A program made the position numbers and the translations under genes. The notes under the pieces are model-generated. The model was given only the letters and a program-made list of their open reading frames with translations, did no database searches and was not told where the DNA came from. A stretch of 64,000 bases of DNA, taken from positions 12,026,771 to 12,090,770 of the forward strand of contig OZ316891.1 of NCBI GenBank assembly GCA_973895155.1. The letters run 5' to 3'. The DNA comes from Marsupella aquatica (lineage: Eukaryota > Plantae > Marchantiophyta). Position 1 is the first letter of the stretch, and each line of letters begins with the position of its first letter. Below, in pieces: positions 2,691-64,000 of the stretch.

Positions 2691-2721
2691 GTAGAGGGGT
2701 CTTATAGGGAAAATCTACAGG

Positions 2722-3483
2722 GTGAGAGGTCACAGGGTCTGCCCATGCCCAACTCCGGACGGGCACAACCTGGACCACCCGGAACTCTTTGTACCGGGTA
2801 CATTTCTAAATGGGCTGTTAGGAGATTTCTCCCAACAGATTGCACAAGATACCGGGGAGTTCATGGCCCGGAAGGTAGCCTACTTCTTCAACCAGGAGTT
2901 GGTTACTGCAGTAAAGGCCGGCCGGGCTCAATCGGAGGCCCTTCAAAGAATAGAGCGGTACCGGGTTGAGTCTATGTACCTAAAGGACAAAGTTGCGGCT
3001 CAAGAGGCTGAGCTTCTGCAACTACAACCCAAGGTTGCAGCCGCCGATGAGTTGTTAGCAGAGGCGCGCGCCCTTACCGCCTTAGCCGAATAGGCCAAAG
3101 CTGGGATGGAGGCCGAGATTGCACGGCTCCGGACCCAGGTTGACAGTTTGAAGAACCAAACTATCATCTGGCAAAAAGACCTAGAGGAGGCCGAAGAGCG
3201 AGCCTAGGGTAACACTGTGGAGATTGCGGCCCTGCAGGCCGAAGTGGCACGGCTTCAAACTGAAGCCGAGAAATAGACCCATATGGTGGACAAGCTGACG
3301 AGCAACGCCCAGCAACTGGAAGAGGCATGCCAGGAGGCAGCTGAGGAGACGGACGTGGCGAAGCGAGAGAACGAATCTCTGTTAGACCAAGTCGAGCTCC
3401 TCAAGATGGACAATGACACACTCTGTAGGCAATGGGATGGCCGCTCCCACTCGGACGGCTCTGGCAAGCGCACCAGGCATTAG
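2722..3483 (+). pseudogene. Degenerate coiled-coil accessory ORF of a Gypsy-type retroelement
   Basis: One frame rich in A/E/L/Q heptads (LKDKVAAQEAELLQLQPKVAAADELLAEA...LEEACQEAAEE), broken by in-frame TAG codons consistent with CAG>TAG decay. Confidence 0.55.
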
Positions 3484-3704
3484 CGGAGAGTTAGGCTTAG
3501 AATAGAACTAGGAGTAGCTAAAACAGGCTGTTAGGACAAGCGCCGACCAGAAGATAGCGGTGCTGACACATTAGCCAGCCTGGGTAGAATAGGTTAGACT
3601 AATAGGACAAGTCGTAACCAGCTTAGCAAGGATATAAGTTAGCGTAGATTCGTGCACGAGGCCAGGCTGGTCCTCAGCCCTTAGTATTTAGCAGCCCCCC
3701 GGTA

Positions 3705-4363
3705 GAGGCACGAGGGGGGATTTTTAGACTCAGAAGTTGACCATTCGCGGTACGCACGGGGAGTCTCGAACTCGGTGAAGTGCCGGAGTGCCAAGGGGAG
3801 GATATACGACTAAGCTCATTGGGCGAGTGCGGAGCCGGGCTCCATTGTAGTGTATACTCCTCGGCCTTGGGCCCATTCATTCATGAGGTGTTGGGTCACC
3901 CAATCGTAAGTGTATGATCAAAGATGAATGAAATCATTTCCCATCAATTCCTTCATGTAAATCAAGATTTCTGCTTATGTATGAATGCATGTATGAGTCT
4001 CGTGTGCAAGTGTCAGTGCTGGGCCAAACACGTCATGCCAAACGTGCACGGGGTGCAGGTTACGGGTACGGGGTTGCGAGCCCGGGTTGAGCACTTGTAC
4101 TAATAGATCCGGATCGAAGGCGGTAACGTGAAGGCTTAGAAGTCCATAAGCAGGGGTCGACCCATGTCAACTAAGGTACGTTCCGGCGGCGGAACACAAA
4201 GCATACCTAAGCGTGCTCGTAAGTAAATGTATGCGCACTTAGCGCTAGTTTGGGAGAATTACACGCACTCCGCACGTCCCTCCCTGCCCAAACCCGAATA
4301 CTAAGAAGGGAAGTGTCCATCTTAGACGTGGATAGGCCTAAGGACTAGGCCGACGGTGTGACA
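3705..4363 (+). mobile_element. Putative polypurine tract and 3' LTR of a Gypsy element
   Basis: GAGGGGGGA at 3712-3720, followed by ~640 bp ending in GGTGTGACA (4363), a typical LTR 3' end. The expected 5' TG is not intact. Confidence 0.4.
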
Positions 4364-4914
4364 ATAACACAAATTTGAGGAGACATTCTTCAAGTGTGAG
4401 CTTATTTCGATGACCCATGCCGTTGTGGACCTCCCCACTATATATATACCTACATGGCCTGCAATTAGAGGTAGTACACACAAACATAGATCTGTATACT
4501 CTAGAATTATTATGAAGTTTGTCAACTCAATCAACCATCCTAGTAAAATTTTCATTGATTGTAAACATCCTTCATACCCATGTTTGAATCTGTATATTAC
4601 ATCATGTCTGATGTCTCCAATTCATAAGAATTGACGAGGCCCAATTGTTGTGGACAATAGAAGCAGACTGATAAATGAGCATGTACTCATTTTCTTCCTC
4701 ATTAAACATGTCATCATTATCACTACAATTATCCACATTACTCTCAATTGATTTATCATTATTTGGTACCTAAAGAGCCATCAATGTTTCTGTCGGCCAT
4801 CATGTCATTGTCAAATTTGATCCAAATTGATTAAATTGAAATTGATGGTCCAATGAAGTTGATTGTTGGTCCAATGGAATTGAGTTTCTATTTTGATACA
4901 ATCTAATTGCAATG

Positions 4915-5885
4915 GAGGTATAATTAATATGCTTAATGGGCCCTCTGGTGTAACTTTCTTACTTGATGGGCCCCTACAAGACATTTTTTTACCTAGTAGG
5001 CCCTCTGCTACACTTTTGCGTCAATTGTTCTTCTAGCATTCACTCTAACCAATTTTTGTTTCATGCATTGACCAACTACATTTTCAAAAAACTATGTGGT
5101 CAAGTATGATTGTAAGGCAAATTGTATCGTCAAACACCCAACCTTGCATGGTCAAACAAAAAGGTCAAACAATGTACTGTAGTTAGGGGAACCGCAGAAT
5201 TGCAATCACAGCTACCCAAATTGCAAAGTGAAGACAATATGGATTATGTCTTTGGATTTGAATTTCAGTGCTCCACACAGGGTTTTGTTGATGTTTTTGA
5301 TTTGGGACTATCAGTTCGAAGGACATGTGCGGTTGCTATGATCCTGGTACTTCCACTAGCATTTTTTTTGTCACTGGCCATTGGACACTTGTTTTCTATC
5401 ACTAGGCACTGGGCTTCAATCAACAACTTGAAGGTATCAACAAAACCTGAGCATTGAGCATCGACAAAATGAGCGCTTCCCTCCTGCTACACAAAGAATC
5501 AAAGAGCGACTATTATTAGGTAGCGGTGACAACCCTAAACTGCTCACAACACACAAATACATAGTGCAATATGTCTTCATGGCTAAACTCGCCCCACCCT
5601 ATTTAGAACCCCGTTGTTGACTGTGTTGTTAGCCACTGGGTTGGGATCATGGTTCCCTATGGCGCGGACGTGATGAACTGGACATAAACACGCTGTGTAC
5701 AACATAGGCCTTATTGTGGTCAGCTACACAATTTGGCACCTCACAAGTATAGTGAGTACGGCTCATTAAGAGGGGGCCTATTAGGTAAAGACAGTTTCCT
5801 AGGGGCCTATAAGGTAAGAATTTTTTTGTAGGGCCCATCAAGTAAGAAAGTTACACTAGAGGGCCCATCAAGCATAGTACATCTC
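4915..5885. mobile_element. Non-autonomous Mutator-like element (MULE) with long TIRs and 10-bp TSD
   Basis: Direct repeat AATTGCAATG at 4905-4914 and 5886-5895. ~90-bp imperfect terminal inverted repeats starting GAG (atgcttaatgggccctctggtgtaactttcttacttgatggg... versus its reverse complement at ~5790-5885). Confidence 0.85.
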
Positions 5886-15208: not shown

Positions 15209-16984
15209 AGTTTTGAAAAGAAAGAGTATTTACAATGTGCATTGGGAGTTTTGAAGTCACTATCCTTGTTCATTGATTTCAATTTGTGGTGCTCAATCTG
15301 CCATAGCCCACACAAGTTGGTCTCAAATCCCTGTAAACCCTGGATAATCACACATTTAACAAACCAATCGAAATGAATCACATCCATCCATCCATCCATT
15401 AGTGTACTTGTGAGGGGATGTGCTCTTATCAAGACATGCAACACCTAGTTTAGTGCACGCCAGATCTCTCTAAGTTTACAGTACTAATGTTTACCTAGTT
15501 TAGCCACGCCCTACATTTTTGAAAAAATCACCGTGTCTCGTAAAATCCTCGGTTACCGTACCGTCCTGGTCACCTGGACATGAGTACCTGAGTCTGCCGT
15601 CTCAGACGACGACAACACATCTGTAGAGACGCTCAGAGGCATTCGTTCTGACCGGTCATCTGAATAATGGAGGGCCGAGATTGCAAGAACTCAAGAACGC
15701 TTTCTTCGGAGTTCAGTGGGCCCAAGAATTTGTTTACGCGCGGGACTTCTCCTCGTGCAGTCTTCACTCTTCGGTTAGTCTTTGGTGAGTATTGAGTCTT
15801 CGCTTCACTGCTCTTGGAAATCTCGTCAGTTTGACATGAATTGCTTTTCTTTTCTTTGCTCGTCTCTGCGCTCGTGTGGAGATGACCTCTTTGCCGTTGT
15901 TTCGAGTATGTTTTCGTAAGAAGGCGAGGAGGGGTGCATGCTTCCTTGGACATCACTCGAACTTCTCCTTTAAATGATTTCATTGTTATGTGATGGAAAT
16001 CGCGCTTTCTGCTTTCTCTCGCGTTTCTGTTTCATGTTTCTGAGTCGAAGGTTAGAAGGCAGGCGGAATGCTGAGTGTCTTCAATGAGATGAGGCGACGA
16101 AGCTGCTCGATTACCAGCGGCTGCGATTTTGGGGCAGGGCATTAAAAATACGACCGGTTTGCGCTTGGCATTGTTCACACAATCGGCCTAAATGAGTCTT
16201 GATCGCCGACGCCGTTACAGTACAGTACTATAGAATTCTTGCTCTGGTCATGATCTCGAATGCCGGTTTTGAAGAGAAGTGTTCAAGACTCTTGTGGATT
16301 CATCATTTGACTGTTGACAGTATCTCAACACTCATCATGCGCGCTTGCGAGCGACACCCGGATGCCGAGTTAATCAAAATCGTCTTGAAATGAGTAGATC
16401 ACAACTGATAACGCTTGTTGTCGAATCACTCCAGGACATGCGACTGGCATTTCCGTCCCGGAATGAGATTTGTCCAAATGTCTACACGGTTCTCACAGGT
16501 CATATCCCGCCGCGTCTTGTCCATCTCAAGCGTTTGTTTTGCGTCTATATAGGCAATCGATCTTAGATTGTACACATCGCAGACGCTGTCCACCGTGAGT
16601 TGATAATTGCAACGGCGTCGCCCTGTGTCCCGTCGTCCTCCGCGGCTCCTGCTTTTTCTACAACTATTCATATTTATTTCGAATGCATCCTCCTTAGTGA
16701 ATCCAAAGCTATTACGGCCCGAGTCTTTCTCCATCGTTCCTTCGCTTAGCCAGATATTGATTCAGATCTCTCGATGCTTGTTGCAGCGACATCTCGGGCT
16801 TTTCCCTGCAATTCTCTCATGCCTACACGTAGCTCGATAGTAAGTTGAAGTCATCCAATTAATTAATGTGCATGTTGTTCTTTTCCACTCGCATCCCTTC
16901 TCCAGCTTTTCATAATTTCTCCAATCCACACCTTGTGTAGGAGTTCACTCCCTTGAAACTTGAAATTCTACTGTAAGTGAAAAC

Positions 16985-18235
16985 ATGAGCGTCATTACAG
17001 ACGCGCCAGAGCAAAATCTTCCTCACGTCCATATTTCTGCTGTTCCTACGAGTGTCCCCGGACCTGGTGAACGGAATTATTTGGACTTGGTGCCCATGCA
17101 TTCGGATTCGGTACCGTTGCTTGCGGATGGTGGGGGACTTGTATCAAAGATCTCGCCTGTTGACGTTGAGGAGGCTATCTCCGGTGTGACTGACGTACAA
17201 CGTCCGTTCTCTTTGGCCGATCATCACGATGGGGAGCGCAAACATGGGCCTTCTGACGCACCGCTTTTAGTGAGGTGTCCCAGAGGAGGTTTGCTGAGGT
17301 TAGGATTCGCATCTTGTGATTTGGCTGGTGGCTCTTGGCAACTGTTACCATTTTCTGTTCTTGTGCCGCGACCACCAGCCGATTTCGCCGGTACCTTCGA
17401 TAGAATTTACAGCGGAGGCGGTCTGGTGCTGATGGAGAAGTTCGCGAAACAGCAGTACCTCCTCGTCGTCAGCAATCCGGCGAGCAACTCACAGCGCCAG
17501 TTGCCGCCAATGATGGAATTCTCCAAACCAGAAATTCTCGGAATTTTCGTCGATAATGCGACGGCGAGTTACAAAATTCCCGTCGTTCAACGCAAGTACA
17601 ATGAAAAGGAGATGGATTTGGTCCTACTGCAGGAGTACGATTCCATCTCGAACTCTTGGGAATTCGCTGGACAATGGAGGAATAGATTTCAAGTGGAGCC
17701 AGTTGGAGCTGTGTACGTGAATGAAGCTCTGTTCTTTCTGACTTACGATAGGCAGACGCATGACGAGGGAAGACAGCAACCTGTTCATCACATCTACTAT
17801 CTCAACGATTATGTGTGGGAGAGGCTGGAGTTACCGTTGGGGCTGGGCTTCCCTGCCATCTTTGAATACAGAGGTAGGCTGATGCTCGCAGGTAGCCTGC
17901 ACTGTGGCGACTTGGACAACGGGGACGGCTCCTCCGCTGAGCAATCGGTGTTCATCTGGGAGCACGAATGGTCGCTCATGAGGTGGAAGGAAGTGTGCAA
18001 CATGCCAGGTCCGTGGGTTGACGAGCTCTACAAATGCGCTCCTGAGGAGGGCAGATGTACGCTGGAAGTCACAGCGGCCGGCAATTTCGTGTGTGTTGCG
18101 AGCTCCAATGGGAAGGTAACTAAATGCGATATAACCAAAAATGAATGGGCCTGGTTATCGAAATGCGACCTTCCGAAGTACGCGGATGGTGACAGCATGT
18201 TGCTCCTTGAACGGAGGCCCGATATCCCCGTATAG
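16985..18235 (+). CDS. F-box-associated/kelch-like beta-propeller protein (416 aa, intronless), no recognisable F-box
   Basis: Motifs GGGLVL...LVVSNPASNSQRQLPPM, YDSISNSW, AVYVNEALFFL, PAIFEYRGRLMLAG, VFIWE...WKEVCNMP, CDITKNEWAWL, typical of the plant F-box/kelch-like family C-terminal region. Confidence 0.8.
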   Translation: MSVITDAPEQNLPHVHISAVPTSVPGPGERNYLDLVPMHSDSVPLLADGGGLVSKISPVDVEEAISGVTDVQRPFSLADHHDGERKHGPSDAPLLVRCPRGGLLRLGFASCDLAGGSWQLLPFSVLVPRPPADFAGTFDRIYSGGGLVLMEKFAKQQYLLVVSNPASNSQRQLPPMMEFSKPEILGIFVDNATASYKIPVVQRKYNEKEMDLVLLQEYDSISNSWEFAGQWRNRFQVEPVGAVYVNEALFFLTYDRQTHDEGRQQPVHHIYYLNDYVWERLELPLGLGFPAIFEYRGRLMLAGSLHCGDLDNGDGSSAEQSVFIWEHEWSLMRWKEVCNMPGPWVDELYKCAPEEGRCTLEVTAAGNFVCVASSNGKVTKCDITKNEWAWLSKCDLPKYADGDSMLLLERRPDIPV

Positions 18236-24000: not shown

Positions 24001-25501
24001 TAGCGCGTAATCTATGCCAATACATGTAACTTCAGAACTCAGACATGTAAGAGACTACATTCAACTCAAAAGTAAAAGCGCTAGCTCGTCGATCAGAATG
24101 AAAATCTTATAATTAAAGTATCCTTTCAAATATTTAGGAAGCGAAGCAATCTAAAGATCGTCTTGGAGTTCTACGCAAAGCAGCGCTCCTCCAGGATTCC
24201 TAATTACTGGCAGTCTAAAGGCCCGAAGCTGAGTAATTTCAGTATTACGTACCCCTCCTTTTGCTTGAGGTATAAATGACAGGGAACCACCGCAATGTAT
24301 ACCAAGTGAGGCTATTTCTATACGAAACCTCTGCTTTAATTTCTTACAAAGTACGTGGTGGAAAGTCTGCGGGAAACTTCTACATAATCATCGTCAGAAG
24401 TGTTCAGACATGTACATCTAATGCTGAAATTCACCTGTAAGTGCCAGCATTGATCCGAATGACGACGCGCTGCGTATTATATTCGGGAACGCTGTCAATA
24501 GCCTTTTGAAGGGAAGAGAAATCTGCATTCTCACCCTGAGAGACGGTAATTGTAATCAGCGGACCTCTTTCCATGGGCGGCGCTCTCCAGGTATGACCGT
24601 GGCTCGCGGTGCTGACATTTTCACCGACAATATCAACGGGAATGAGCTCACTACCTTCGAGGAGTTGGTGCGATTTCTCGTGCCCTGTATCATGTTCGCT
24701 CCCGAAAGATAGTCGTAGAAGTTTTCTTCCGAACAGTCCATTCCGAGAATAGTCATTCTCCTGGCCCAGTCTTCGCGATGCGGAGTGCACTGTCCCACTG
24801 CCAGCAGACGAGTTGCCGAAGTTGTTTCTCGACACAGAGTGGCGCGTAGATGAAAATTGCACAGAACCGTTTCGAGCTGTCGAGCCTAAAAGGCCAATCT
24901 CTTGCTTCGACAAGCTGGATATACCTTTAGGCAAAGATGAAGGGAGAGAATTACGACGAAAGGGACTGGAGTGGTTGGAGGAACTACGAACCAGGGATCG
25001 CGACAGAATCTGCTTTGCATCCGGAGTCCGCTGCCTCTGCGATCTTAGCCGATTGGTGCTTGACATTAAGAGCATGGATGTAGCGTCAGACTTGAGATTA
25101 TGATCGTCGTTAATATAGCTCGCAGTGAGAGCTGCGGATCTACGAACTACTCGAGAATCCGAGAGATTTGTACTTTGAGAACTGGCGTTTTCAGGTAGAC
25201 TGTTTTGTTTCGGCTGTCCATTTACAGACCTCACAGGGAAGACGAGCTCCTTTCGTGACCTCCTTGATAATCCATGTGGATCATGAACCACAATGGAGCA
25301 TCCTACTTGATGACCTAACCGACAATGAGCGGTGATCATCTTATTGGCCCTAATATTTTCTCCAGATGTTCCTAACTCTCGAATTGCATGAAGGGGAACC
25401 TGAATGCAGTCTGTGACAATGGCCAAGCGAGTTAATAGCAGTAACTCCAAAAGATGCGGAATTATGTGAGGTCCAGAATGTTTCCTCATTTGATTCCGCA
25501 T
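21059..25501 (-). CDS. Pectin methylesterase (pectinesterase, CE8); exons 25501-24435, 23750-23501, 23209-23003, 22630-22395, 21242-21059
   Basis: Spliced protein carries [49 protein letters not shown] and GPGAN motifs. Intron phases are consistent and there is an N-terminal hydrophobic segment. Confidence 0.92.
21493..21567. repeat. 26-bp tandem repeat x~3 in the last PME intron
   Basis: GTCCTGGGGAACACATGTTATAAATT repeated. Confidence 0.9.
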
Positions 25502-25786
25502 CGTAGCTACTGCGCGAATTGGCGAGCAAACAATGGACGCCTTGCCGGACGCAAAAGTAGTGAGTGGGAGTGATACCACTCTCTCATCTAGCTAGAACGA
25601 GAGAACCGTTGGGAAAATGATGTTTTCTATATAAGGACACAGAACGTCAAATGTTGTGTAGATTCAAATCCCGTTTCATAGACGACCTTCAGAAGAGGAC
25701 GACCACTGCGTACACGGAGCCAGCGAAAGCTCTAGCCAGCTGATCGAGAATATCAAACAGCTTTTCCGGGTTTCTGACCACTTCAT

Positions 25787-29430: not shown

Positions 29431-31358
29431 CTACTGGTCTTCTAGAAAGACAGCCACGGGTTTCGATCGAGGAATTTTCGGTAGGGGAGTCTTGCCTGTG
29501 AGAATGTTTAGAACATCCCTCATGGTGGGTCTGGCTGCAGGATCCGGGTGACAACACAGCAACCCCACCTTGAGAGCCAGTTTCATTTCTTCCTCCTCGG
29601 CGACGCTTTTGAAGGCCAATTTTGGATCCATCGCATCGAGGAGTTTCTCGTCCTTGTGAAGGTCCCAAACCCAGTCCAAGAGAATGCAGTTGGACGTCAA
29701 CGTCCTCCGAGCACACGACACTTCGAGCACAACCACCCCAAATGCGTATACATCGGTCTTGTCCGTGGCTTTTCCAGTGAGACTGAACTCGGGAGCAAGA
29801 TACCCGATTGTGCCCGCTACCATCGTGGTTCTTGGTGTTTGGCTATGCGCTGATAGACGCGCAAGCCCGAAGTCGCCTAGGCGTCCATTGAAGTGAGAAT
29901 CGAGCATAATGTTGCTTGTCTTAATATCGCGGTGTACAACACGCTGCTCCCACTCCTCGTGTAAGTAAACCAGGGCGGTAGCCACTCCGCAAAAGATGTT
30001 ATAGCGATGCTTCCATGATAAGGGAGACACTGGTGTCCCATCGTCATCACCATGATCGTGGGCAAAGATTAGATCGTCTACGTCCCCATTAGGCATATAC
30101 TCGTACACTAAGATGAGCTCATCTATCTCGTCGCACCAGCCTAGTAGTTGGACGAGGTTGCGATGGCGAAGCTGGGAGATGATGTTCACCTCTGCTATGA
30201 ACTCTCGAGCTCCCTGCCGGGCGTACTGCGATAGTCTTTTCACTGCCACGGGGGCCTGAGGCGAGTCTCGCAAGTAGCCTTTGTATACTGTGCCAAATCC
30301 GCCTTCACCAACGATTAATGAGGGGTTGAAATTATCGGTCGCCAGTTTGAGTTCATTGTAAGAGAATCTCTTCGGTCCCCAGGGCCACTCAATATCGCAA
30401 GCCTCGACGTCCTTGCTGTGCGACGAGTGAGACCGAGAGCGAGAATCCGATGTGTAGGAGAGAACCAACCCTATCCCTTGTCGACCGCTTGATTTCCTTA
30501 GCCTTTGCCAGTAGTTTTTTCTCGTCATGACTGCGAGTACTATCAAGGCTGCGAGCACGGCTAGTGCCACCATAACTCCTATCACTGTGCCCAGAATCCA
30601 GGCCACGTTGTGGTTATGCGTCTTCTTTTCCGTCTTCCCTGTGATAGGACCAACAGAACCAGCGAGGGGTGAGACATCGACGGGAATAGTAACAGCGAAC
30701 CCCATTCCCAATCGACACTCCGTTGGATTTATGAATCCAAACTGGTCTGAAGAGTATTGGGCCGACGCGCTACTGAGATTGTAACCGATCATGGCAAAAT
30801 TTAATCTGCCTGGAGGAATGCCATCGGATGCATCACACTTTTCTGCGGCCTCCAAGGACACTTGCACGACAGGATATGTCCCAAAGACTGCACGTCCGAT
30901 GCACAAGATCGTCAGGATGCAAAATTCTGCAAGTCCGCCTCACTCTCAAACTTTGAAACTCTACAAATTTGTTTAATGTTCTGAATGAGCAGATTCTTTC
31001 ATCACGGGTCCCAGATACTACGGAATATTGTTAAAGTCATTGAAAGCTCTTCCACAACGGGAGATAGGGTATCAAATGGAAAGCTTAGCCTTCACCGAAT
31101 GAAGCGCTGGCTTTGCTTCCTACTCTAAAAGAAAACGGAATGATACTTACCAAGGCAGTCGGTAGTTGTTAGAGTCAGGTTGGATATCCACCCTTGATAG
31201 TTAAATCCAGATGTGTAGTTATCTGGTGAGCTTTGAGAATATTTCCACCCATAAGAACCTCCAACTACAATTATTGTTCCTCCATCGACAGATCGCAATA
31301 TGATTAACCAGAGTGCAGCCGCCAGCAAAGACTGAATCCGAATTCCAATGGATGCCAT
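29431..31358 (-). CDS. Receptor-like kinase: signal peptide + phytocyanin/cupredoxin-like ectodomain + TM + L-type-lectin-RK-like Ser/Thr kinase; exons 31358-31151, 30887-29431
   Basis: Phase-1 GT-AG splice gives ...VGGSYGW...NYQGW...DCLVFGTYPVVQVS...KCD...ECRLGMGFAVTI. TM segment VAWILGTVIGVMVALAVLAALIVLAV. Kinase motifs GPKRFSY, GEGGFG, VAVK, LHEEWEQRVVHRDIK, DFG, GTIGYLAPE. Confidence 0.9.
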
Positions 31359-54013: not shown

Positions 54014-55610
54014 TATTGATTGACGCCTCCTCGCCAGCCAAAAGGCCGTTGACCGGACCATTACTGATAGCTAGCGATTGAATATTATACTTTCAACAAA
54101 TTTTTGTATGTTGGGTCTGTCAATTAAGCTGGCGGACGGTGATAAAATCACTTGTAGTAGTTACGAATTGCTTACTTCCCAGTTGCCAACCTTGTACATA
54201 TCAACACTTCCGTATAGCTGCATTTATATATTGAGCTTCCTGGGTCACTGACTTTCACATACGGTACAAGGGGATTCGTTAGTGGCAATCCCGGGGAAAC
54301 AGGTCACAGCCTCCCTCCATTTCTTTGTAGATGTAAGTCTCCATGCTTTTGTGGAAGTGGTGATCATAAATGTCTGGAACTGCACCCGCCACAACTGGCC
54401 TGGTTTCAGCCCTCACTTTGAAAGTACTGACAACACAGAAAATGGCATTTTCAGCCTAAATCAAGTTCTACAACAGGATTTAAAGCTCCCTCTTTACCAC
54501 ATGTTCAATGACATATATATAATAAAGAGATTGAGAGCATCAATGTATGGTTTTGCATGGTGTTAGCCGTGGCCTATCCTTAGTGTTTATCTCCAAACCT
54601 TTGATCGTGCCATAATATGACCTAGGACTTGTCGCTGCATGCTCGAAAGTAATCGGCGGAATAATACGCTGTCCTATATGGTCTAAGATGCTGAATTGCC
54701 ACTATTCCGAGCGTTCTACACAATTTCATACAAATTGACTAACCACGTACGCTCCATTGTTGACTAATAGAATCGAACGTAACACTAAATTTCTTTCGTC
54801 CGAAATGTCTTGATTGCATCTTCGCTCGGTGGACTAGCTTACATAGAAAACTTCACAAGTGTTTGGGGTAGGATCGGGTGCACTTGGAGCACAGGGAGAG
54901 ATGTCTGGTAGATTTGGACCCACAAAAATAGTACATACATTTAAAGCTTGAAATCTATTTATCGACTTGCAGACCAGTGAGATGTACCTGGTATGGTCAT
55001 CGGATTTCTGAACCACAAGTTCGGTGTACCATTTGCATGGTTATCAGAGTTTTGAGCTTGAAGTGCAGCGAGATTCGTTTGGCCTAGTACAGTAGCTGGC
55101 AATTGTAGCAATTTTGTAGGTTTCTTACTTCTTCAGGAACATGGTATGATTATCGGATGAAAATTTTGGGGTGAAAGATTATGGGCACCACTCGTAGGCG
55201 CATCTGGATAACTAGTACGAAGTAAGCAAAATTGGAGAGTGAGACTATACACAGCACCCGCAGGGCAGGGGAACTACATGGCGCAAATTTGTAACAAGAA
55301 ATTCTGTACACCTTGCATCGTAGTGATATGATGCATATAGCATGCTCATTTGGATGCAAATTTGGAACATTCAGACGCTCATAGTCCAGAGGTTGAAGAG
55401 AAAGTTGATCCTTGGGCCTAATATCCTGAAGCTTTACTTTTGTGTCAATTAATACAAGGGGGCCTTGAGAGGTCCAACAAGTAATGGTTCTTGGAATTTT
55501 GGCACACCTAAGTAGATTAGGAATAGAATTGGTAACAGCATATGAGTGGCACTAATTAGTTCGTATTATGGGTTTTTAATCTCCTTTGTAACTTATGGTT
55601 ACTTTAGGAT

Positions 55611-55765
55611 ACATATCTCAGCTGTTGGTTTAGGGTCACTAAGCTAGTCCTTTGATTCTCTCTCTTCCAGGCTCCTCTGATTACTACACACATCTCACAT
55701 CTCAGCTGTTGGTTTTAGGTCACTATGCTAGCCTGTTGATTCTCTCGTCCAGGGCCCCTCTGATA
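55611..55765. repeat. ~82-bp tandem duplication
   Basis: ATCTCAGCTGTTGGTTT..GGTCACTA.GCTAG....TTGATTCTCTC.TCCAGG..CCTCTGAT x2. Confidence 0.85.
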
Positions 55766-55790
55766 TATATATTGGTATCAGCCTATTCAT

Positions 55791-56142
55791 TAAAAGTGTA
55801 TTATTATTTTATTTATGTACATTTGGGCAGTGAAAAGTGTACTTTTGGGTTTGGAAAAGTGTACATTTGGCCAATGAAAAGTGTATATTTGGGGATAGAA
55901 AAGTTTACAATTGGCCTAAAGAGTGTACATTTGGGCAATGAAAAGTGTAAATTTGAACATCAAAATAGATACATTTGGCTTTAAAAGTGTACATTTGAGT
56001 ACATTTGGCCTAGAAAGTGTACATTTGAGTGCAAAATGCATATATTTGGCTTAACAAGTGTACATTTAAGTGCATTTGGTCTAGAAAGTGTAACTTTTAG
56101 TGCAATAAAGTGTACATTTGGCCTAAAAAGTGTACATTTGCC
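55791..56142. repeat. Subterminal ~22-bp tandem repeats with TGTACA core
   Basis: AAAAGTGTACATTTGG variants repeated more than 10 times. Confidence 0.9.
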
Positions 56143-56391
56143 TACCAACTCTTATTATAATCATTTAAAAGAAAGGAATGAATAGAAAAACATTTTTAAT
56201 TATGTAGAAAAAGCAAACATTCATATTTATAATGATCAAAAGTTTAGAAAATGAGGAGATAGTATCACATTAAAACTATTAGAATAGTAAATAACTAGTA
56301 CATAAATTACTATGTTTGAATGAGTGACTATCTTAGTTACATAAAAACTAGTAACTATCTATTTAATTATTATAGCTTCTAACAACTAAGT

Positions 56392-58284
56392 CTACTTGTC
56401 CATCCTTTGAAGATAATTTTGGACAGTTTGTAGAACATTTCGAGGGATCTTCAAACCTCTGCCCGCCATGTTTTCTTCTTTCATTCCAGATTTAAAACCA
56501 TACATTGCAGAATTCGCATACTGCCAATGTTGAGTATTCTCACCAAACCCTGGATCTCGTTCCCATGTCTTAGTGGACATGAAACAATTTAGATACCGCG
56601 CACTCTCAGTCACATCAAGTTTACTAGAGTGTTTAGGCCTCCACCATTCAACTGGGAACATTGGAGCGTACTGTCGAGGCAGAGAAGGGTTTGTTGAAGA
56701 TGTAGTTGGGACTTCATGCTTTGGGTCCACCAAACCCAAAGCTCTCACCAACCAGAAATGACCTCCACCATTTTTATTCTCCCAGTCATCCTCGGGTCGA
56801 AGAAATACAAAGTTTCCTTCACAAATATCTTGTAAAGGAATCCATCGTCCTTGTTCTCTCTCAGCTCGAGATCCAACAAATGGTGCTGCTTGATCTTCCA
56901 TCTCTTCCAAGACCTCATTTTGAAGAGCCGTCATCTCTGCATTCTCCTCATCTTCACTTGGAGGACCACTTTGTTCCGGTTGGTTGACCTTGTAACCAGT
57001 GCCGTGGTTAGTCTTAGGCCAAAATCTGTTTTCCAAGGGAAATTGAGTACTTCCCTCCCCTTCTAGTGCGAGCCCATTTGTCAACAACTCCACAATTCTC
57101 TCCCAATATTTCACAAGAGGAAATCTTTCCTTATATGCTATAGATGTCTCATCAGTGCAACTCCTTCTCAAAAAATCAAGGTACTTGTTAAGAAATGGGA
57201 TAATCTCTTCAGATTTTTTGTGTATCTCTCCAATGGATTTAGCTAAGGGCTCTCCACTTGGTAAAAGAAGAGAATTTGTTGTCAGATCTGTTGCCCAAAT
57301 GCACCTTCCACCAACTGGAGCCCAAGCTTGCTTTACATGGGACTTATACTGAAATATTGGTACATTATCTCTCATAGAGAAAAGAAATGATACAGGTTTT
57401 GAGTGACCTTGAATATCTTTCACCTTGAAAGTTTGAAGATATTCTTTGTAAGATGCAACTTCTTGTATCAATCTGGGAACTGGATGAATGCTCTCGCATT
57501 CCCATACCTCTGCCATAAGAGCAAGGAGGGTTGCAACTTCTTTGTGCTGAACTTGATATGATACCTTTGAAAAGAGTGCATCAACATCTTCATGCGTATG
57601 ACCAACCATTAGAAAAGACATTTGAACAGTTTCAAATACTCCTCTACTCACAAGCTCGCTACAAAATGCCATGACAGTCTGGTTTTTGTTGTCCTTTGCT
57701 GAATTATCCATCTGCAATGTTAGGTGCCTTGGCAAGGGCTTGAACGATGGACTGCATTGCTCTCCTTGCATGTCTTCTCCATCATCCTCATCTTGCTGGT
57801 TTGGGACGGTCTCAGTCCGACTCTCAGCTCCATCTTCAGAACCAATATACCTATTCACCGGTATATTCTTTGGTTCCAAATAACCCGTCAAAAATGCTTC
57901 AAAGTCAAGCAGGGCTTGAAAGAAAGGTCTGTGAGGTTCCCAATGAAGGCCATCCAACATGTCACCTGTCTTGTCTCCATTGTACTCTTCAAGGTCTCGA
58001 AGACACTTAGCCAAGGATGTCACCGTGAAATCGGCATCTTCTGGCCAAAGGCCAGTGACACTACAGTGTGCATAAACTCCTGGATCCCTCCCGTGGGTCA
58101 ACATCCCTGTGAGAGCAATAGGTAGCGGCATTCCATGACCCGAAAGAGATTTAGGAGTACTAACCATTTTTGGAATCCATGTCTTTGCTTGATCCATCTT
58201 GTCATGAATAATGCAAAGATATTCTCCTGGGTGTTGTTTGGCAATCACTCGATGAGCGTAGTAAACATATCTACTTGATTCCTC
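56392..58284 (-). CDS. DUF7869-type DDE/D transposase catalytic region (no ATG start; N-terminus probably lost or frameshifted)
   Basis: QEESSRYVYYAHR..AKQHPGEYLCIIHDKMDQAKTWIP, LTGMLTHG, LTLQMDNSAKDNKNQ, GVFETVQMSFLMVGHTHEDVDALFS. Confidence 0.8.
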   Translation of the reverse strand, partial: EESSRYVYYAHRVIAKQHPGEYLCIIHDKMDQAKTWIPKMVSTPKSLSGHGMPLPIALTGMLTHGRDPGVYAHCSVTGLWPEDADFTVTSLAKCLRDLEEYNGDKTGDMLDGLHWEPHRPFFQALLDFEAFLTGYLEPKNIPVNRYIGSEDGAESRTETVPNQQDEDDGEDMQGEQCSPSFKPLPRHLTLQMDNSAKDNKNQTVMAFCSELVSRGVFETVQMSFLMVGHTHEDVDALFSKVSYQVQHKEVATLLALMAEVWECESIHPVPRLIQEVASYKEYLQTFKVKDIQGHSKPVSFLFSMRDNVPIFQYKSHVKQAWAPVGGRCIWATDLTTNSLLLPSGEPLAKSIGEIHKKSEEIIPFLNKYLDFLRRSCTDETSIAYKERFPLVKYWERIVELLTNGLALEGEGSTQFPLENRFWPKTNHGTGYKVNQPEQSGPPSEDEENAEMTALQNEVLEEMEDQAAPFVGSRAEREQGRWIPLQDICEGNFVFLRPEDDWENKNGGGHFWLVRALGLVDPKHEVPTTSSTNPSLPRQYAPMFPVEWWRPKHSSKLDVTESARYLNCFMSTKTWERDPGFGENTQHWQYANSAMYGFKSGMKEENMAGRGLKIPRNVLQTVQNYLQRMDK

Positions 58285-59399
58285 TTGTTAAAATTGTAGG
58301 GCCTTGAACGCAGTACTCCTCTATCACTTACATCCGCATTGAGTTCATCCCTATCCATTGAGTCCATCCTTTCAGAACCTTCCACCAAAATGTCTGACAA
58401 AAATTTTCCATTTGCAACTAGTTTTGTTGAATCAATCCGCCATCGAATCAAACTCACTACTCCCTTGTGGATGTTGGGAAAGTATTGTGCTGCCACGACA
58501 TCTTTCACAGCAATCCCAACATGGTCATCACCAAGAATTTCATCATCAACTGCCGCCGTCACTTGAGGGACAGTGATCGTTCCCGTGGCAACCATTTTGG
58601 TTCGATCCAAACCAGTGTAGAGTTCAACCAACTCTGACATCCAGTTTGCCCGATGAAAATAGTCACACTTAGTGTCTGTGGTGTTTGCCGAACAAGACTG
58701 TGAAACAAAATCCACCTTGTCCTTTTGCTTCTTAGAGGAAGATTTGTTGCTCCCATCGATGTCAACATTCCATACTTTATTGTGGACGTCAGCCACATCC
58801 CATAGAACCCAGGAGCCCTTTGCCTCTTCAATTGTTGCAGCTCCACCATGTGCGTAAGGTAAAGTCTTACTACCATGAATCACATCTGTGATTTTTACAC
58901 TAACCCGAGACTCACCGAGTAATATGTTATGACATCTCTCCATTGGATCAGTCTTGAAAACAACTCCAAAGGCCACACAATGGCCAGAGATAAACATTTC
59001 AACCTCATCACCTGGCCTTAGGGTGGTCGAAGCATCCTCCTGTACATTTGCAGAATTATGGATGTTGTTATCTTTTCGAGTCGAACAACTACCAATACTG
59101 ATGCGTTTTTGAGTAATCTTATCCGCAGATCGATATGCACATGACATATCCCAAATGACACATGAGTCAATGGCATCATGAAGATTTTCCGCCCTAGGCA
59201 TTGGAAAAGGGAGCTTCCTGGTCTCACCAAAGGCCTTCTCAATGAGAACCCCAATTCGATTCTCTCCCAGCACAATATTTTGAAGACTCTCTTGCGGATC
59301 TGTCTTTTGAACTGTCCCATTTCCAACGTCGTAACCATCCATTGTCAAGGTCACATCATCGCCCCTAGAAAACCTTTGAGACATCCTTTTCCTATTATC
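58245..59399 (-). CDS. Exon/ORF with three tandem Tnp1/En-Spm-like (Transposase_23/DUF8039-like) domains
   Basis: Three copies of V(A/G)xGxV...(DP)...ILG(E/D)xxVxVxI...(LP)...W(D/R). Splice acceptor tttttttcagtgtgcag at ~59400. Confidence 0.7.
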   Translation of the reverse strand, partial: DNRKRMSQRFSRGDDVTLTMDGYDVGNGTVQKTDPQESLQNIVLGENRIGVLIEKAFGETRKLPFPMPRAENLHDAIDSCVIWDMSCAYRSADKITQKRISIGSCSTRKDNNIHNSANVQEDASTTLRPGDEVEMFISGHCVAFGVVFKTDPMERCHNILLGESRVSVKITDVIHGSKTLPYAHGGAATIEEAKGSWVLWDVADVHNKVWNVDIDGSNKSSSKKQKDKVDFVSQSCSANTTDTKCDYFHRANWMSELVELYTGLDRTKMVATGTITVPQVTAAVDDEILGDDHVGIAVKDVVAAQYFPNIHKGVVSLIRWRIDSTKLVANGKFLSDILVEGSERMDSMDRDELNADVSDRGVLRSRPYNFNKRNQVDMFTTLIE

Positions 59400-59454
59400 C
59401 TGCACACTGAAAAAAATGGATTAAAAGCAAAGTCATGCAAATTTTGATTCAGAC

Positions 59455-60400
59455 TGCGATCCTCAAAGTCTGGATTTGGACTACGATCCTTCAATTCCGG
59501 ATTTGGACCGGGACCATCCAAGTCCGGATTTGGACTACGATCCTCTGATTCTGGATTTGGACTAGGACCATCCGAGTCCGGATTTTGACCGGGACCATCC
59601 AAGTGCGGATTTGGACTGCAATCCTCCGAGTCTAGATTTGGACTACGATCCTCCGATTATGGATTTGGACTGGGATCATCCGAGTCTGGATTTGGACTGG
59701 AATCCTTCGAGTCTGGATTTGGAGTACGATCCTCCGATTCTGGATTTGGACTGGGACCATCCGAGTCTGGATTTGGACTGGGACCATCCCAGTCCAAAGT
59801 TGGACTAGGACCATCCCAATCCAAACTTGGACTCGGACCATCCCAATCCAAACTAGGACTTGGACCATCCAAGTCCAAACTTGGACTCGGACCATCCCAA
59901 TCCAAAGTTGGACTCGCACTATCCTAATCCAAACTTGGACTCGGACCATCCCAATCCAAACTAGGACTTGGACCATCCAAGTCCAAACTTGGACTCGGAC
60001 CATCCCAATCCAAAGTTGGACTCGGACCATCCCAATCCAAAGTTGGACTCGCACCATCCTAATCCAAACTTGGACTCGGACCATCCCAATCCAAACTAGA
60101 ACTTGGACCATCCAAGTCCAAACTTGGACTCGGACCATCCCAATCCAAAGTTGGACTTGAACCATCCTAATCCAAACTTGGACTCGGACCATCCCAATCC
60201 AAACTAGGACTTGGACCATCCAAGTCCAAACTTGGACTCGGACCATCCCAATCCAAACTAGGACTTGGACCATCCAAGTTTAAACTTGGACTCGGACCAT
60301 CCCAATCCAAAGTTGGACTCGGATGATCCCAATCCAAAGTTGGACTCGGATGATCCTAGTCCACATCCGAATCCAAACTTGGACTAGGACCATCCTAGAC
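59455..60400. repeat. 27-bp palindromic minisatellite, ~35 units, two subtypes
   Basis: GGATTTGGACTGGGACCATCCGAGTCT subtype to ~59790, then CCAAA(C/G)TTGGACTCGGACCATCCCAAT subtype. Confidence 0.95.
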
Positions 60401-60966
60401 CAACCCATAATGTAACGGGAGATAAACTTCAAACATTTTAAGCTAAGAAAATTCCAAATTTAGGAAGACTCCGTATTTTACGGATCTCCCTATATGGTGT
60501 AGCCTAAAGTTTGCGTGGTCTTAAGGTAGACCCTAATGTCTACATACAGTTTCATGAAATAATGAAACCTAGCCTTATATTTGAATGCATTAACCTTATA
60601 CTCACCTTAGTATTAAGATCTGGTAGAATATGAATATCACATCCAAGGGGGATACATTGTTGTCTGTAGATTGGTAAAAACTTTCCCAGAACCCTGAATA
60701 CAAGCTATATGCCACTAAATCTTGGGAGTAAAAAACAAACTGAACCCTAAACCACACATGTCTGTAAAAGATAAACTGAGAGGACCCCAAAAGTCAAGAA
60801 GCTGGCTAAGCTGACCCATTGAAGGTAAGTGGCTCAATACATAACACTTTAAGAGAAACTCCGGATTACATGGAGCTTAGATTTGGGAAACTAGAACAAG
60901 AATGAGCTCCGAAGTGGGCGTCTCCCGAAATATACCCTTTGCTCGAGTCGGCTCAAACGGAAATCG

Positions 60967-61025
60967 CGTGAAGATAAGGGTTGAGTACCCCTTCAACTTA
61001 GCTTGCGGCACACCTTATCTTCACG
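60967..61025. other. Perfect 13-bp inverted repeat enclosing a smaller hairpin
   Basis: CGTGAAGATAAGG (60967-60979) and CCTTATCTTCACG (61013-61025); inner GTTGA...TCAAC. Confidence 0.8.
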
Positions 61026-61433
61026 AGCTTAATTGTGCGGGGACTACCGTGCAAGGCTGTTAGGTAGGCAGGACATCAAGGAAGGAGGCCCGTATGTAGG
61101 GTGCGGGCAACGGGTCGTACGCAGGAGCAGGCCGTACGCACTATCAGGCCGTACGTAGGAGAAGGAGGCAACCGGCCGTACGCAGGCCGGGGTGAGGCAG
61201 GAGGGGGTAAAGGGACGGAGAGGTCCAGCCAGGACCTCATTCTCATTCTCACTCTTTCGCTCCTCACTCTGCTCACGCTCTCCACTCTCCGCCTCCGCTC
61301 TCTGCTCTTTGCCTCCACTCGCTCGCTCTCCTCGCTCTTTGCTCTCCGCTCTCTCTCTGCCTCCCCGCCTCCGCCTGCTTCCGCCTCCACCTCCATTCTT
61401 TTTCATTGCCCTAAATCGGACGCCTGCTAAGAA

Positions 61434-61458
61434 GCCACGTGTCACTCTGCCACGTGTC
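61434..61458. promoter_or_regulatory. Two G-box/ABRE-like motifs
   Basis: GCCACGTGTC at 61434-61443 and 61449-61458. Confidence 0.4.
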
Positions 61459-61464
61459 AGAAAG

Positions 61465-63749
61465 ATGGAAGCGAATCGCGTCCTTGTGAAGTCCTCCGTG
61501 GAAGCAACAGAGGAGTTTGACCTCTCCTCTATGAGCGACAGTGTAGAACTGGCACTTGAAGACTCCAGACAATTTCAATCAAGAATCCCTAGTAAGTATC
61601 CATCACCTATCCTCCCTAAGTCTTAGAGGACTGGGACCATCCGAGTCCAAAGTTGGACTCGGATGATCCCAATCCAAACTTGGACTCGGACCATCCCAAT
61701 CCGAACTTGGACTCAGATGATCCTAATCCAAACATGGACTCGGATGATCCCAATCCAAAGTTGGACTCGGATGATCCCAGTCCAAAGTTGGACTCGGATG
61801 ATCCCAATCCAAAGTTGGACTCGGACCATCCCAATCCGAACTTGGACTCAGATGATCCTAATTCAAACGTGGACTCGGATGATCCCAATCCAAACTTGGA
61901 CTCGGATGATCCTAATCCATCCAGGAGATTGAATCTCGATTGTAGGAGCAAGTCTAAAACCATCTCAAGTTGGACTAGGACCATCCTAATCCAACAAGAG
62001 TTATTCAAATGTTTTAAACTTAATAAGTCTAACATGGATGACGTTTTTATGATGCAGGGAGCGATCTTGTTGGTTTCAAACCCGCGATTGCACCGACCGA
62101 CTGCCGGGATGGATTCTTACTAGATGAGAGATCCCCAGGCTTCCGATGGGGGCTTGAGTTCTCAAGAACCCCGCTTAATAATGAAGTGCCATCAAGCACG
62201 ATTGAACCTGTTTTGACCTTAAAGTGCAGAGCAAATGATAGCCTGACTTTGGTTTGCGGACCTGTGGTCTCTGTTGGCATTGGAGGGACAGGGATGAATT
62301 TGGTCATTCTGGAGATGCACGATAGGTCATGCTGGGTTATAAGTTAACCTTATGTCAAAGGCATACTCCTCAGAATTCAATGTCGAATGGCACGCAAGTG
62401 GTGAATTGAGCGTTTTGTCAATGGGATTTTTTCCAAAGACATATGACACAAAGAAGTTGGTCATCGGGGTAACTGGTATGCTTCCAGTCGACATTATGTA
62501 TGGGTTTCAATATTTGAAACTCAACATGATGAAGCACCAAGGCAATTTCTCTTTTGCAACTACTTGGACGTTAAGCAATTTACTTGAGAAAGTTGGATTG
62601 TTATCATTGGAGTCAGAGGAGCCTGGTGTTTTAATTGATAAGGATGTTGCATTTGATCCCAACTTTGATTTAGTCAAAGCAAAGCAATGGATAGAATCTT
62701 TGTCAAAGACGAGAAACCTTCCAACGGTGAATACAAACCCTGTGCCCGAGAAGGCGCCAGAGAAAGCTCCAGAACCTACAACAGAGACCGCGGGAACTAC
62801 AGCAGCAACCTCTCAAAGAGCAGTGGGAAAACAAAAACAAAGCCAAAGGAAACCTCCGGTTGAAAAGAGACTTCCAGTTGAGAAGCCGGTTGAGAAGCCG
62901 AGTACGAGAAGCCGAGTTCAGAAGCCAGTTGAGAAGCCGAGTACGAGAAGCCAAGTTGAGAAGCCAGTTGAGAAGAAACGTCCGGTTGAGAAGCCAAGTG
63001 CAAGTGAAAAGAGGCCAAGACAAAAGAAGAAACAGAAAATTGACAGTGCCATCATGGATGACACTACAGAAAACCTGACAGTGCATTCACAAGATATGGA
63101 CGAGCAGTTGGACGCTCCTGAGGAGAAGAAGGTCTTAGAAGGTAATGAGGGACTGCAACAAATGGAGCAATATTATACGTTTGGGATCAATTCGATATTT
63201 TCTATTCCCGTAGAGAGTATTTTCCCTGCGTCGGCAAGACTCTGTTACAGAATGTTGAATGCAAACCATGTAAAGGAGGTGGCCAATTCCATGATAAGAA
63301 ATCCGGGGCATGAACCACACATAGCAGACTTGATTCCTTACACTACAAAACATAGAAACCTAATGCAATATGACAACACGGAATCAGATAGGAGGGACTT
63401 TGTAGCAGCCGTGAAAAAGGGGGAGGTTCAATTCCTTGCCATTAGCGGTCAACATTCGGCCAGAGCAGCCAGATGGATTCGAGAATGGGCAAACAAGGAT
63501 GCCAAGCTAACAGCATTGGCAAAAAAGCTGGAATTTCGAAAGTCAAGAATATTATCTCATCGAACACCATCGTCAATATTAGTTGAGCATTCAATGCGAT
63601 CTAATGCTATCAATAGCACGATGGTGTTTCAGTCATGCTTCAAAGATACAGTCGTTCATGCTAGGCGGCAATTTGTGGAATGTGGAAAATCTAGCCGGCC
63701 AAAACATGGGGACAACAAAACAAACGCTCAAGACAATCAAAAATTTCAG
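61465..63749 (+). CDS. ParB/sulfiredoxin-like domain protein (TE cargo); predicted exons 61465-61591 and 62058-63749, one frameshift near 62341, probably continues beyond the window
   Basis: Phase-1 splice A|GTAAGT...GCAG|GG gives an open frame to TAA at 62345. The +1 frame is open 62352-63770 with PVEKP repeats, an NLS-like KRPRQKKKQK, and FSIPVESI..YRMLNANHVKEVANSM..P..FLAISGQHSARAA. Donor CAG|GTACGA at 63749. Confidence 0.6.
61627..61995. repeat. Second 27-bp palindromic array (~11 units plus an outlier)
   Basis: TTGGACTCGGA(TGA/CCA)TCCCAATCCAAA(C/G) repeated. Confidence 0.95.
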
Positions 63750-63848
63750 GTACGAAGTGTTACTGCTTGATTGGTACAATACCGTAGACTCTCCATGTGT
63801 GATTACAATTGAGATGGTAGTCTTTGACCACAAAGCTTCAAGTTTGCT

Positions 63849-63957
63849 TTGGATTGAGATGGTCCGAGTCCAAATGGATACATTCACATTCAGTAGAATA
63901 TTTCCACTGATATCGTCTAGTTTTGTGTTGGACTGGGATGGTCCCAGTCCAAATGGA
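63849..63957. repeat. Two isolated copies of the 27-bp palindrome
   Basis: TTGGATTGAGATGGTCCGAGTCCAA (~63849) and perfect TTGGACTGGGA-TGG-TCCCAGTCCAA (63928-63952). Confidence 0.85.
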
Positions 63958-64000
63958 TTCATGCACATTCAATAGACTATTTCCACTGATATTGTCTAGT

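Follow-up and report, generated by a model that had tools for sequence, protein, structure and literature searches.

A palindromic 27-bp minisatellite as a candidate docking site for the ParB-like accessory protein of a multi-copy DNA transposon in the liverwort Marsupella aquatica

GxxR is the CTP motif of bacterial ParB proteins, and parS is a 16-bp palindromic site. Among transposons, the Sola1 superfamily has terminal inverted repeats and a 4-bp target-site duplication. Two papers of 2025 propose that ParB-like accessory proteins bind and modify their own transposons, and no test of the idea is reported in the passages available. Petroll et al. described giant Plavaka elements with a ParB-like gene (PAG3), adjoining arrays of tandem inverted repeats and a methylase and SET gene (bioRxiv 10.1101/2025.02.11.637652). 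The element Sola1-1_Ec32 of Ectocarpus carries an opposite-strand ParB-like and N4mC/N6mA methyltransferase gene (PMC12477816). In the VANDAL transposons of Arabidopsis, VANC binding and demethylation are proven, the families differ in their motif and the repeat units evolve together (Hosaka et al., PMC5735166). Dam methylases fused to ParB-HTH domains were reported from chlorophytes and chytrids, with few N6A methylases in land plants (Iyer et al., PMC4738411, in the part available). A report of such a transposon design from a land plant was not found in the literature searched, in which just two algal papers fit; the Plavaka supplements may bear on how close the match is.

The window analysed here, a stretch of 64,000 nucleotides of contig OZ316891.1, contains a 27-bp palindromic array, which forms an internal repeat within a large multi-copy DNA transposon that extends from about 55775 to beyond 64000. 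Summed contig depth, which is not a copy number, rose from 17.9 in the flank to 424–2219 across 55768–64000 (run X2). The step at about 55775, a boundary placed to about 30 bp, was kept up to the window end, including the arrays and the middle segment, with the same pattern in all four runs. The left end of the element (55775–56144) carried a 22/30-bp subterminal repeat at 55816–56144, with 12 copies of the motif AAAGTGTACATTT in one orientation. This motif differs from the internal palindrome, of which a matrix scan found no copy at the left end, and its copies are likely candidate transposase sites. The left end lay within CTGATA...TATCAG (55760–55782), where short inverted repeats flank an AT run. 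As for a CACTA/EnSpm terminus, no CACT was present on the plus strand at 55741–55860. The middle segment of the element (60606–61464) had C/T-rich leaders on both strands and multi-copy depth, and we infer that it probably comprises a divergent promoter and 5' exons. An LTR inserted at 60411–61600 was rejected, with no target duplication found by eye and a depth equal to that of the element. In the host DNA, an intact-looking expansin-like gene was read by eye at about 52.1–54.0 kb, 1.8 kb from the element end. Further observations there were a protein kinase ORF (29431–30939, Pfam E 1e-43), a weak pectinesterase match (24431–25591) and a 423-codon open frame without a Pfam match (16964–18235).

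The transposase gene (56392–59384, minus strand) encoded a DUF7869 domain (E 1.3e-43), and Pfam gave no match to a MULE- or VANC-type domain. Its catalytic candidates were D27, D194 and E232 in P0001, and a GHT motif presumably links it to Sola. The 195 homologs included Calypogeia fissa (66%) and Riccia sorocarpa as the best named relatives. Since the homolog alignments begin at 59384, an ATG, the array between the two genes (array 1) lies upstream of the transposase coding sequence. It falls within a predicted 5'-UTR intron of this gene (59400–60605, minus strand), with an AAG/GTGAGT donor and, 15 nt ahead of the ATG, a CAG acceptor with its pyrimidine tract. About 250 codons present in homologs were missing from this copy at 58278/58287, and the absent neighbour sequence was encoded by loose ends that other copies show at 58278. 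The N-terminus (58245–59384) consisted of two tandem copies of a domain that is single in homologs; a relative had a weak Transposase_23 match.

An accessory gene (61465–63749, plus strand) was divergent from the transposase gene, with array 1 between them. It consisted of exon 1 (61465–61591), an intron (61592–62057) and exon 2 (62058–63749, where the exon ends), and continued beyond the window. The two exons joined in frame around a second array through a predicted GT-AG intron with a CTAAC branch-like site. Homologs matched from 62054, and a break in the reading frame was located near 62340. Both genes appear disrupted in the present copy, which would rely on products supplied in trans. A library-wide search yielded 100 relatives of the accessory protein. 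Its order was an N-terminal domain, a Lys-rich linker and, at 63111–63749, a domain with a predicted ParB/Srx fold (model pLDDT 94.6). The linker contained an in-frame 12/39-bp repeat (VEKP/STRS, 62867–62983). The first 12 Foldseek rows for the domain were all Noc, ParB or sulfiredoxin, with a best E of 1.6e-3 and none reaching E 0.001. With VIA, the domain matched PadC (Z 7.8, rmsd 3.2, 98 aligned), KorB (Z 7.7, rmsd 2.8, 93 aligned) and pNOB8 ParB-N (Z 7.7). Alignment A1, used as the query of a sequence search in solved structures, yielded no significant match, and for the ParB part the ESM Atlas returned DUF3723-like clusters (0.95), which is a lead only. The domain contained an ISGQHSxxA motif, whose G, Q, H and S occurred in 24, 26, 26 and 25 of 26 sequences, respectively. 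The motif is thus GQHS and not the GxxR of ParB.

The helix-turn-helix and methyltransferase parts of the accessory gene were judged from homologs. No long homologs of P0003 alone were found among 215 candidates, and a profile search for long homologs found 12. The longer homolog P0181 as a whole matched a Noc construct of the N-terminal and DNA-binding parts (E 2e-4) and had confident helices at 266–337 after the ParB-like domain; the helical part matched Spo0J weakly by VIA (Z 4.3, rmsd 4.7, 156 aligned). For the C-terminal 250 residues of P0181, a low-confidence model, no methyltransferase match was found, and for the C-terminal part the ESM Atlas gave nothing above 0.79. Matches to N6_N4_Mtase below the cutoff were obtained for two of 11 homologs scanned (P0192, E 0.004; P0200, E 0.023). 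A SET domain was located at the C-terminal end of three of 10 homologs, all from the fern Adiantum. In P0219, a ParB-like start was joined to a DUF7869 fragment, which shows both genes as neighbours in a different element.

Tandem Repeats Finder (TRF) called array 1 as a 27-bp tandem repeat at 59452–60350, bearing out the minisatellite that a sequence-only reading had described. Phased on the palindrome, it comprised 34 in-phase 27-bp units (59448–60365) of two subtypes. The 12 units of the left subtype (59448–59771) had only the inner dyad core and a higher-order period of three units (p=0.012). The right subtype (59799–60404) had 21 in-phase units (59799–60365) and one offset unit (60378–60404). 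The junction unit at 59772–59798, with a CCA spacer, was the sole perfect 12-bp-arm palindrome among the 34, and phasing placed this palindrome with its 3-nt spacer exactly at the subtype switch, as had been claimed. What had been presented as the idealised unit proved to be this junction unit and not the consensus, which for the right subtype is CTTGGACTCGGA-CCA-TCCCAATCCAAA, with 9 of 12 positions pairing. The higher-order alternation described earlier was confirmed: variants in the right block alternated at lags 2, 4 and 9, best at 4 and 9, with identity in none of 20 adjacent pairs (p=0.002) and in 7 of 19 lag-2 pairs (p=0.009). For the arms of the junction unit, left units give TTTGGACTGGGA and right units give TCCCA(A/G)TCCAAA. 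Positions 9/19 changed from G/G-like in the left block, where these half-site positions were mostly purine/purine, to G/C in the junction unit and C/C-like in the right block. The perfect unit is most simply a seam of a left-block left arm and a right-block right arm, and therefore needs no special role. Regarding a simple inversion, the left block matched the right block at 17 of 27 positions directly and at 19 of 27 as the reverse complement, with the spacer orientation unchanged. As a sequence oddity alone, the array with its perfect junction unit is a matter of ordinary tandem-repeat dynamics. Before 59708–59741, loose ends in other copies or places joined a unit to a flank absent from the window, a hint that subfamilies, or the part of the element past 64000, may contain additional arrays.

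The same unit family formed array 2 (61625–61995; TRF call at 61628–61919), with 11 units and an offset unit (61969–61995), in predicted intron 1 of the ParB-like gene. Predicted intron 2 of that gene, which starts with GT at 63750, contained two single copies in opposite orientation (63848–63953), both as part of a 79-bp repeat. The transposase coding sequence contained one degenerate copy (57795–57821), at a loop where homologs show gaps; it scored 18.8, on a scale where the lowest training unit scored 15.9. A matrix made from the array units alone recovered five extra copies in the element (57798, 60381, 61972, 63851 and 63930). At a score of at least 12, there were thus five copies outside the in-phase arrays within 7 kb of element, versus none in 55.8 kb of host DNA, which gave one match once the threshold was lowered to 9. 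Two of the five were offset units at array ends, and the remaining three were in unrelated flanks. The sequence-only reading had not picked up array 2, the dispersed copies or the surrounding transposon. Isolated copies had kept the spacer-centred dyad (6.6 of 8 pairs) and not the between-unit dyad (2.8 of 8). Exact unit patterns had no match in viral or metagenome contigs, and Rfam gave no match at the gathering score for 55500–64000.

Dyad symmetry was above shuffles in the right consensus (90/20000) and in the consensus of array 2 (77/20000). Among distinct units, divergence at consensus-paired versus other columns was 0.051 and 0.283 in the right block (p 0.003), 0.065 and 0.214 in array 2 (p 0.010), and 0.077 and 0.218 in the left block (p 0.013), in a comparison that is partly circular and in which units share ancestry. 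The symmetry of the left consensus, with 7 pairs and just the inner core kept, was not above shuffles (10311/20000). Positions 6/22 and 12/16 were invariant in all 33 distinct units, and the least constrained columns of all were the mirror positions 9 and 19 (0.15 and 0.02 bits).

On balance we favour, with somewhat better than even confidence, the reading of the 27-bp unit as a parS-like docking site for the element's own ParB-like protein, multiplied in tandem within the introns that flank the shared promoter, so that the protein would mark or shield its own family. We prefer it because the array lies between the DUF7869 gene and a divergent ParB/Srx-fold gene and because the unit recurs at four further places of the element but not in the host flanks, as well as because relatives have other family-specific palindromes and the element end has a different motif. 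It draws on sequence and a structural model, with introns predicted from sequence. The parS- or operator-like character suggested earlier for the unit gains from the ParB/Srx-fold gene in the element, from palindromes in unrelated element flanks and not in the host, and from the lower variability of paired columns. We infer dimeric binding, a modifying domain in the accessory family and an anti-silencing effect. A dimer of the accessory protein would read two half-sites, TGGA(C/T)TNGGA, across the 3-nt spacer. Slippage and unequal exchange would multiply the site in introns, where this comes at no cost, and tandem turnover would generate subtypes, higher-order repeats and, by chance, a perfect palindrome at the seam. 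The high density of sites could let the protein distinguish its own family from host DNA, and a predicted methyltransferase-like domain (SET in fern relatives) would be brought to the divergent promoter of the element. The most likely outcome would be that silencing is countered or expression tuned.

The main rival binder of the palindromes is the transposase. Through its two tandem N-terminal Transposase_23-like repeats, it could bind them as internal enhancers of transposition or for self-activation, with the ParB-like gene as a passenger; we regard this as unlikely, though a serious contender. A 2026 bioRxiv paper, in the part available, describes sequence-specific activation by a Mutator transposase. 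Related elements bear on both sides. A search by transposase homology yielded 80 metagenome loci (64 groups), many of them short or decayed. Palindromes of 18 bp (L001, 6 copies upstream, 645–1571), 22 bp (L011, 10 copies, 51–2919) and 21 bp (L079, 20 copies, 187–5499) were family-specific, nearly invariant and scattered through the elements. L005-7 had a 24-bp tandem array around GTGGCCAC, with the catalytic core about 4 kb downstream of it. A generic detector placed only these 4 of 33 hand-picked loci clearly above two shuffles each, with L040 borderline. All of L001, L005-7, L011 and L079 have palindromes without a ParB-like gene in the DNA examined, and those of L011 and L079 flank and enter the transposase region, as transposase binding would have it. 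However, three of the four palindrome locus groups span just 3–6 kb, too short to include a divergent gene; in L005-7, the array with 10 kb of upstream DNA had no detectable ParB-like gene. Such a gene was detected in one of the 80 loci, L039 (iE 1.3e-4, part of the score coming from a Lys-rich stretch), where it was decayed and divergent and accompanied by motifs with the GTGGCCAC core. Another DUF7869-type element, L047 (1332–9463), had a same-strand upstream gene with N6_N4_Mtase (E 1.5e-7) and SET (E 2.8e-4) domains, resembling red-algal PAG2; no palindrome cluster was found with it. As judged from these sequences, palindromes recur in the DUF7869 transposase family, but the 80 loci do not link them to the ParB-like gene over the transposase. 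Also against transposase binding, the element end has its own 12-copy motif and no palindrome copy, and the palindromes are densest within the ParB-like gene and next to it.

A neutral minisatellite prone to slippage, with a single palindromic seed in introns as its origin and with amplified early mutations and CpG decay posing as conservation, is in our estimate quite unlikely. Alternation and subtype blocks are what ordinary tandem-repeat turnover yields, and other copies of the element differ by whole-unit deletions. The statistics of mirror symmetry are modest, with units pseudo-replicated through shared ancestry: permutation of mirror-matched conservation gave p=0.06 for all 13 pairs and p=0.03 for the inner 9, and the pooled Spearman correlation was 0.39 (p=0.21). 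In contrast, a 25-bp word was kept with sharp borders in such different settings as the 79-bp repeat, two arrays 1.2 kb apart and coding sequence, and other families have other palindromes at similar places. Changes at positions 9/19 were mostly transversions while the neighbours 10/18 were fixed, although 9/19 sit in CpG dinucleotides in some variants, so that decay could account for part of their freedom.

We consider it very improbable that the intronic arrays act as RNA hairpins which give rise to siRNA and silence or regulate the family. Both arrays lie within introns predicted to be transcribed, and the minus-strand transcript of array 1 folded at -562 kcal/mol versus -341 for shuffles (z -26). 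Of the earlier suggestion that the array forms hairpins yielding siRNA, this strong folding stood. It is automatic for tandem quasi-palindromes, however, and siRNA may be a by-product; a typical unit hairpin amounted to about -3 kcal/mol as DNA. Moreover, pairing was uncompensated, which weakens the rest of that suggestion: pair 9/19 was formed in 6 of 45 units, where independence predicts 10.9, and pair 7/21 stood at the chance level (17 of 45 units, 16.6 expected). Among the 34 array places listed, variants in other copies destroyed pairing at 16 and re-established it at 7, of which one is at the spacer edge; placement within a tandem array is ambiguous, and these variants were counted neither for nor against. 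Because variation is mirror-symmetric yet pairing is not maintained, the sequences fit two half-sites that would be read independently by a protein rather than a selected stem. That the unit is a 9-codon protein repeat (e.g., LDSDDPNPN) of either gene deserves next to no credence and is largely refuted, for although open frames cross both arrays and the most conserved columns recur at every third base, array 1 carries 4–13 stops in each frame, synonymous alleles were not in excess in 18 block-by-frame tests (lowest p 0.16), homologs begin at 59384, the peptide motifs searched occurred in none of 120 homologs and the plus-strand exons join around array 2.

Returning to the docking-site reading, a wider version of it can be put forward, tentatively and as something we find doubtful. 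Land-plant transposons would have domesticated a bacterial-type loading system, in which a ParB-like clamp loads at family-specific, parS-like intronic arrays, spreads from there across the divergent promoter and deposits a mark of its own (N4-methylcytosine, N6-methyladenine or histone methylation), shielding the family from host silencing. Protein and palindrome would co-diverge by family, and, as speculation, such elements could be the reservoir that the 4mC methyltransferase of liverworts came from. In any case, the element provides a candidate site that is precisely defined (half-site TGGAYTNGGA, 3-nt spacer, 50 natural variants) together with a cognate gene, in a land-plant lineage with the tractable relatives Marchantia and Riccia, which makes the self-binding idea directly testable. 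If the idea is true, plants would have, besides VANDAL/VANC, a second anti-silencing system, one assembled from bacterial components.

Among known systems, bacterial ParB/parS, Noc/NBS and KorB/operator resemble the present one in an N-terminal ParB/Srx fold followed by a helical domain (homolog P0181) and in repeated palindromes near the gene. The element differs from them in having GQHS in place of GxxR and a site of 25–27 bp with a 3-nt spacer in place of 16 bp; the conserved dyad spans 21–25 bp around that spacer, and isolated copies do not preserve the 16-bp dyad between units. Additionally, ParA was not seen in the element, and a role in segregation is implausible for an integrated element. 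Since motif and site length differ, the system would not be a bacterial ParB/parS but, by analogy, one that works like the ParB-type transposons and VANC/VANDAL. VANDAL shares a short motif multiplied by tandem repetition in introns (here predicted) and upstream of the transposase, and VANC proteins likewise have tandem peptide motifs in variable regions, comparable to the VEKP/STRS repeat of the accessory protein (PMC5735166). In contrast, VANDAL is a Mutator-like element whose 9-bp motif is non-palindromic and in one orientation, and VANC is not reported as ParB-like in the passages available (PMC5735166). While VANC binding is proven, binding of the accessory protein is a candidate from sequence. 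Plavaka PAG2/PAG3 of Bostrychia and other red algae share, in the passages available, a ParB-like gene with tandem inverted repeats, methylase and SET in the cassette and the same self-binding hypothesis. They differ in an EnSpm/Plavaka transposase and in a ParB fused to a 2OG oxygenase, with methylase and SET in a separate gene, whereas homologs of the present accessory protein combine a ParB-like domain with a methyltransferase-like or SET domain in a single predicted protein; arrays in predicted introns of both genes also distinguish the present element from Plavaka as described in those passages. Sola1-1_Ec32 likewise has its ParB-like accessory gene on the strand opposite the transposase, but its host is a brown alga and the text of the paper does not mention a palindrome array (PMC12477816). 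The present element is a multi-copy DDE-type DNA transposon with an opposite-strand ParB-like gene and tandem inverted repeats beside that gene. It represents, from a land plant, a type of transposon described only recently, whose design is already published from red and brown algae.
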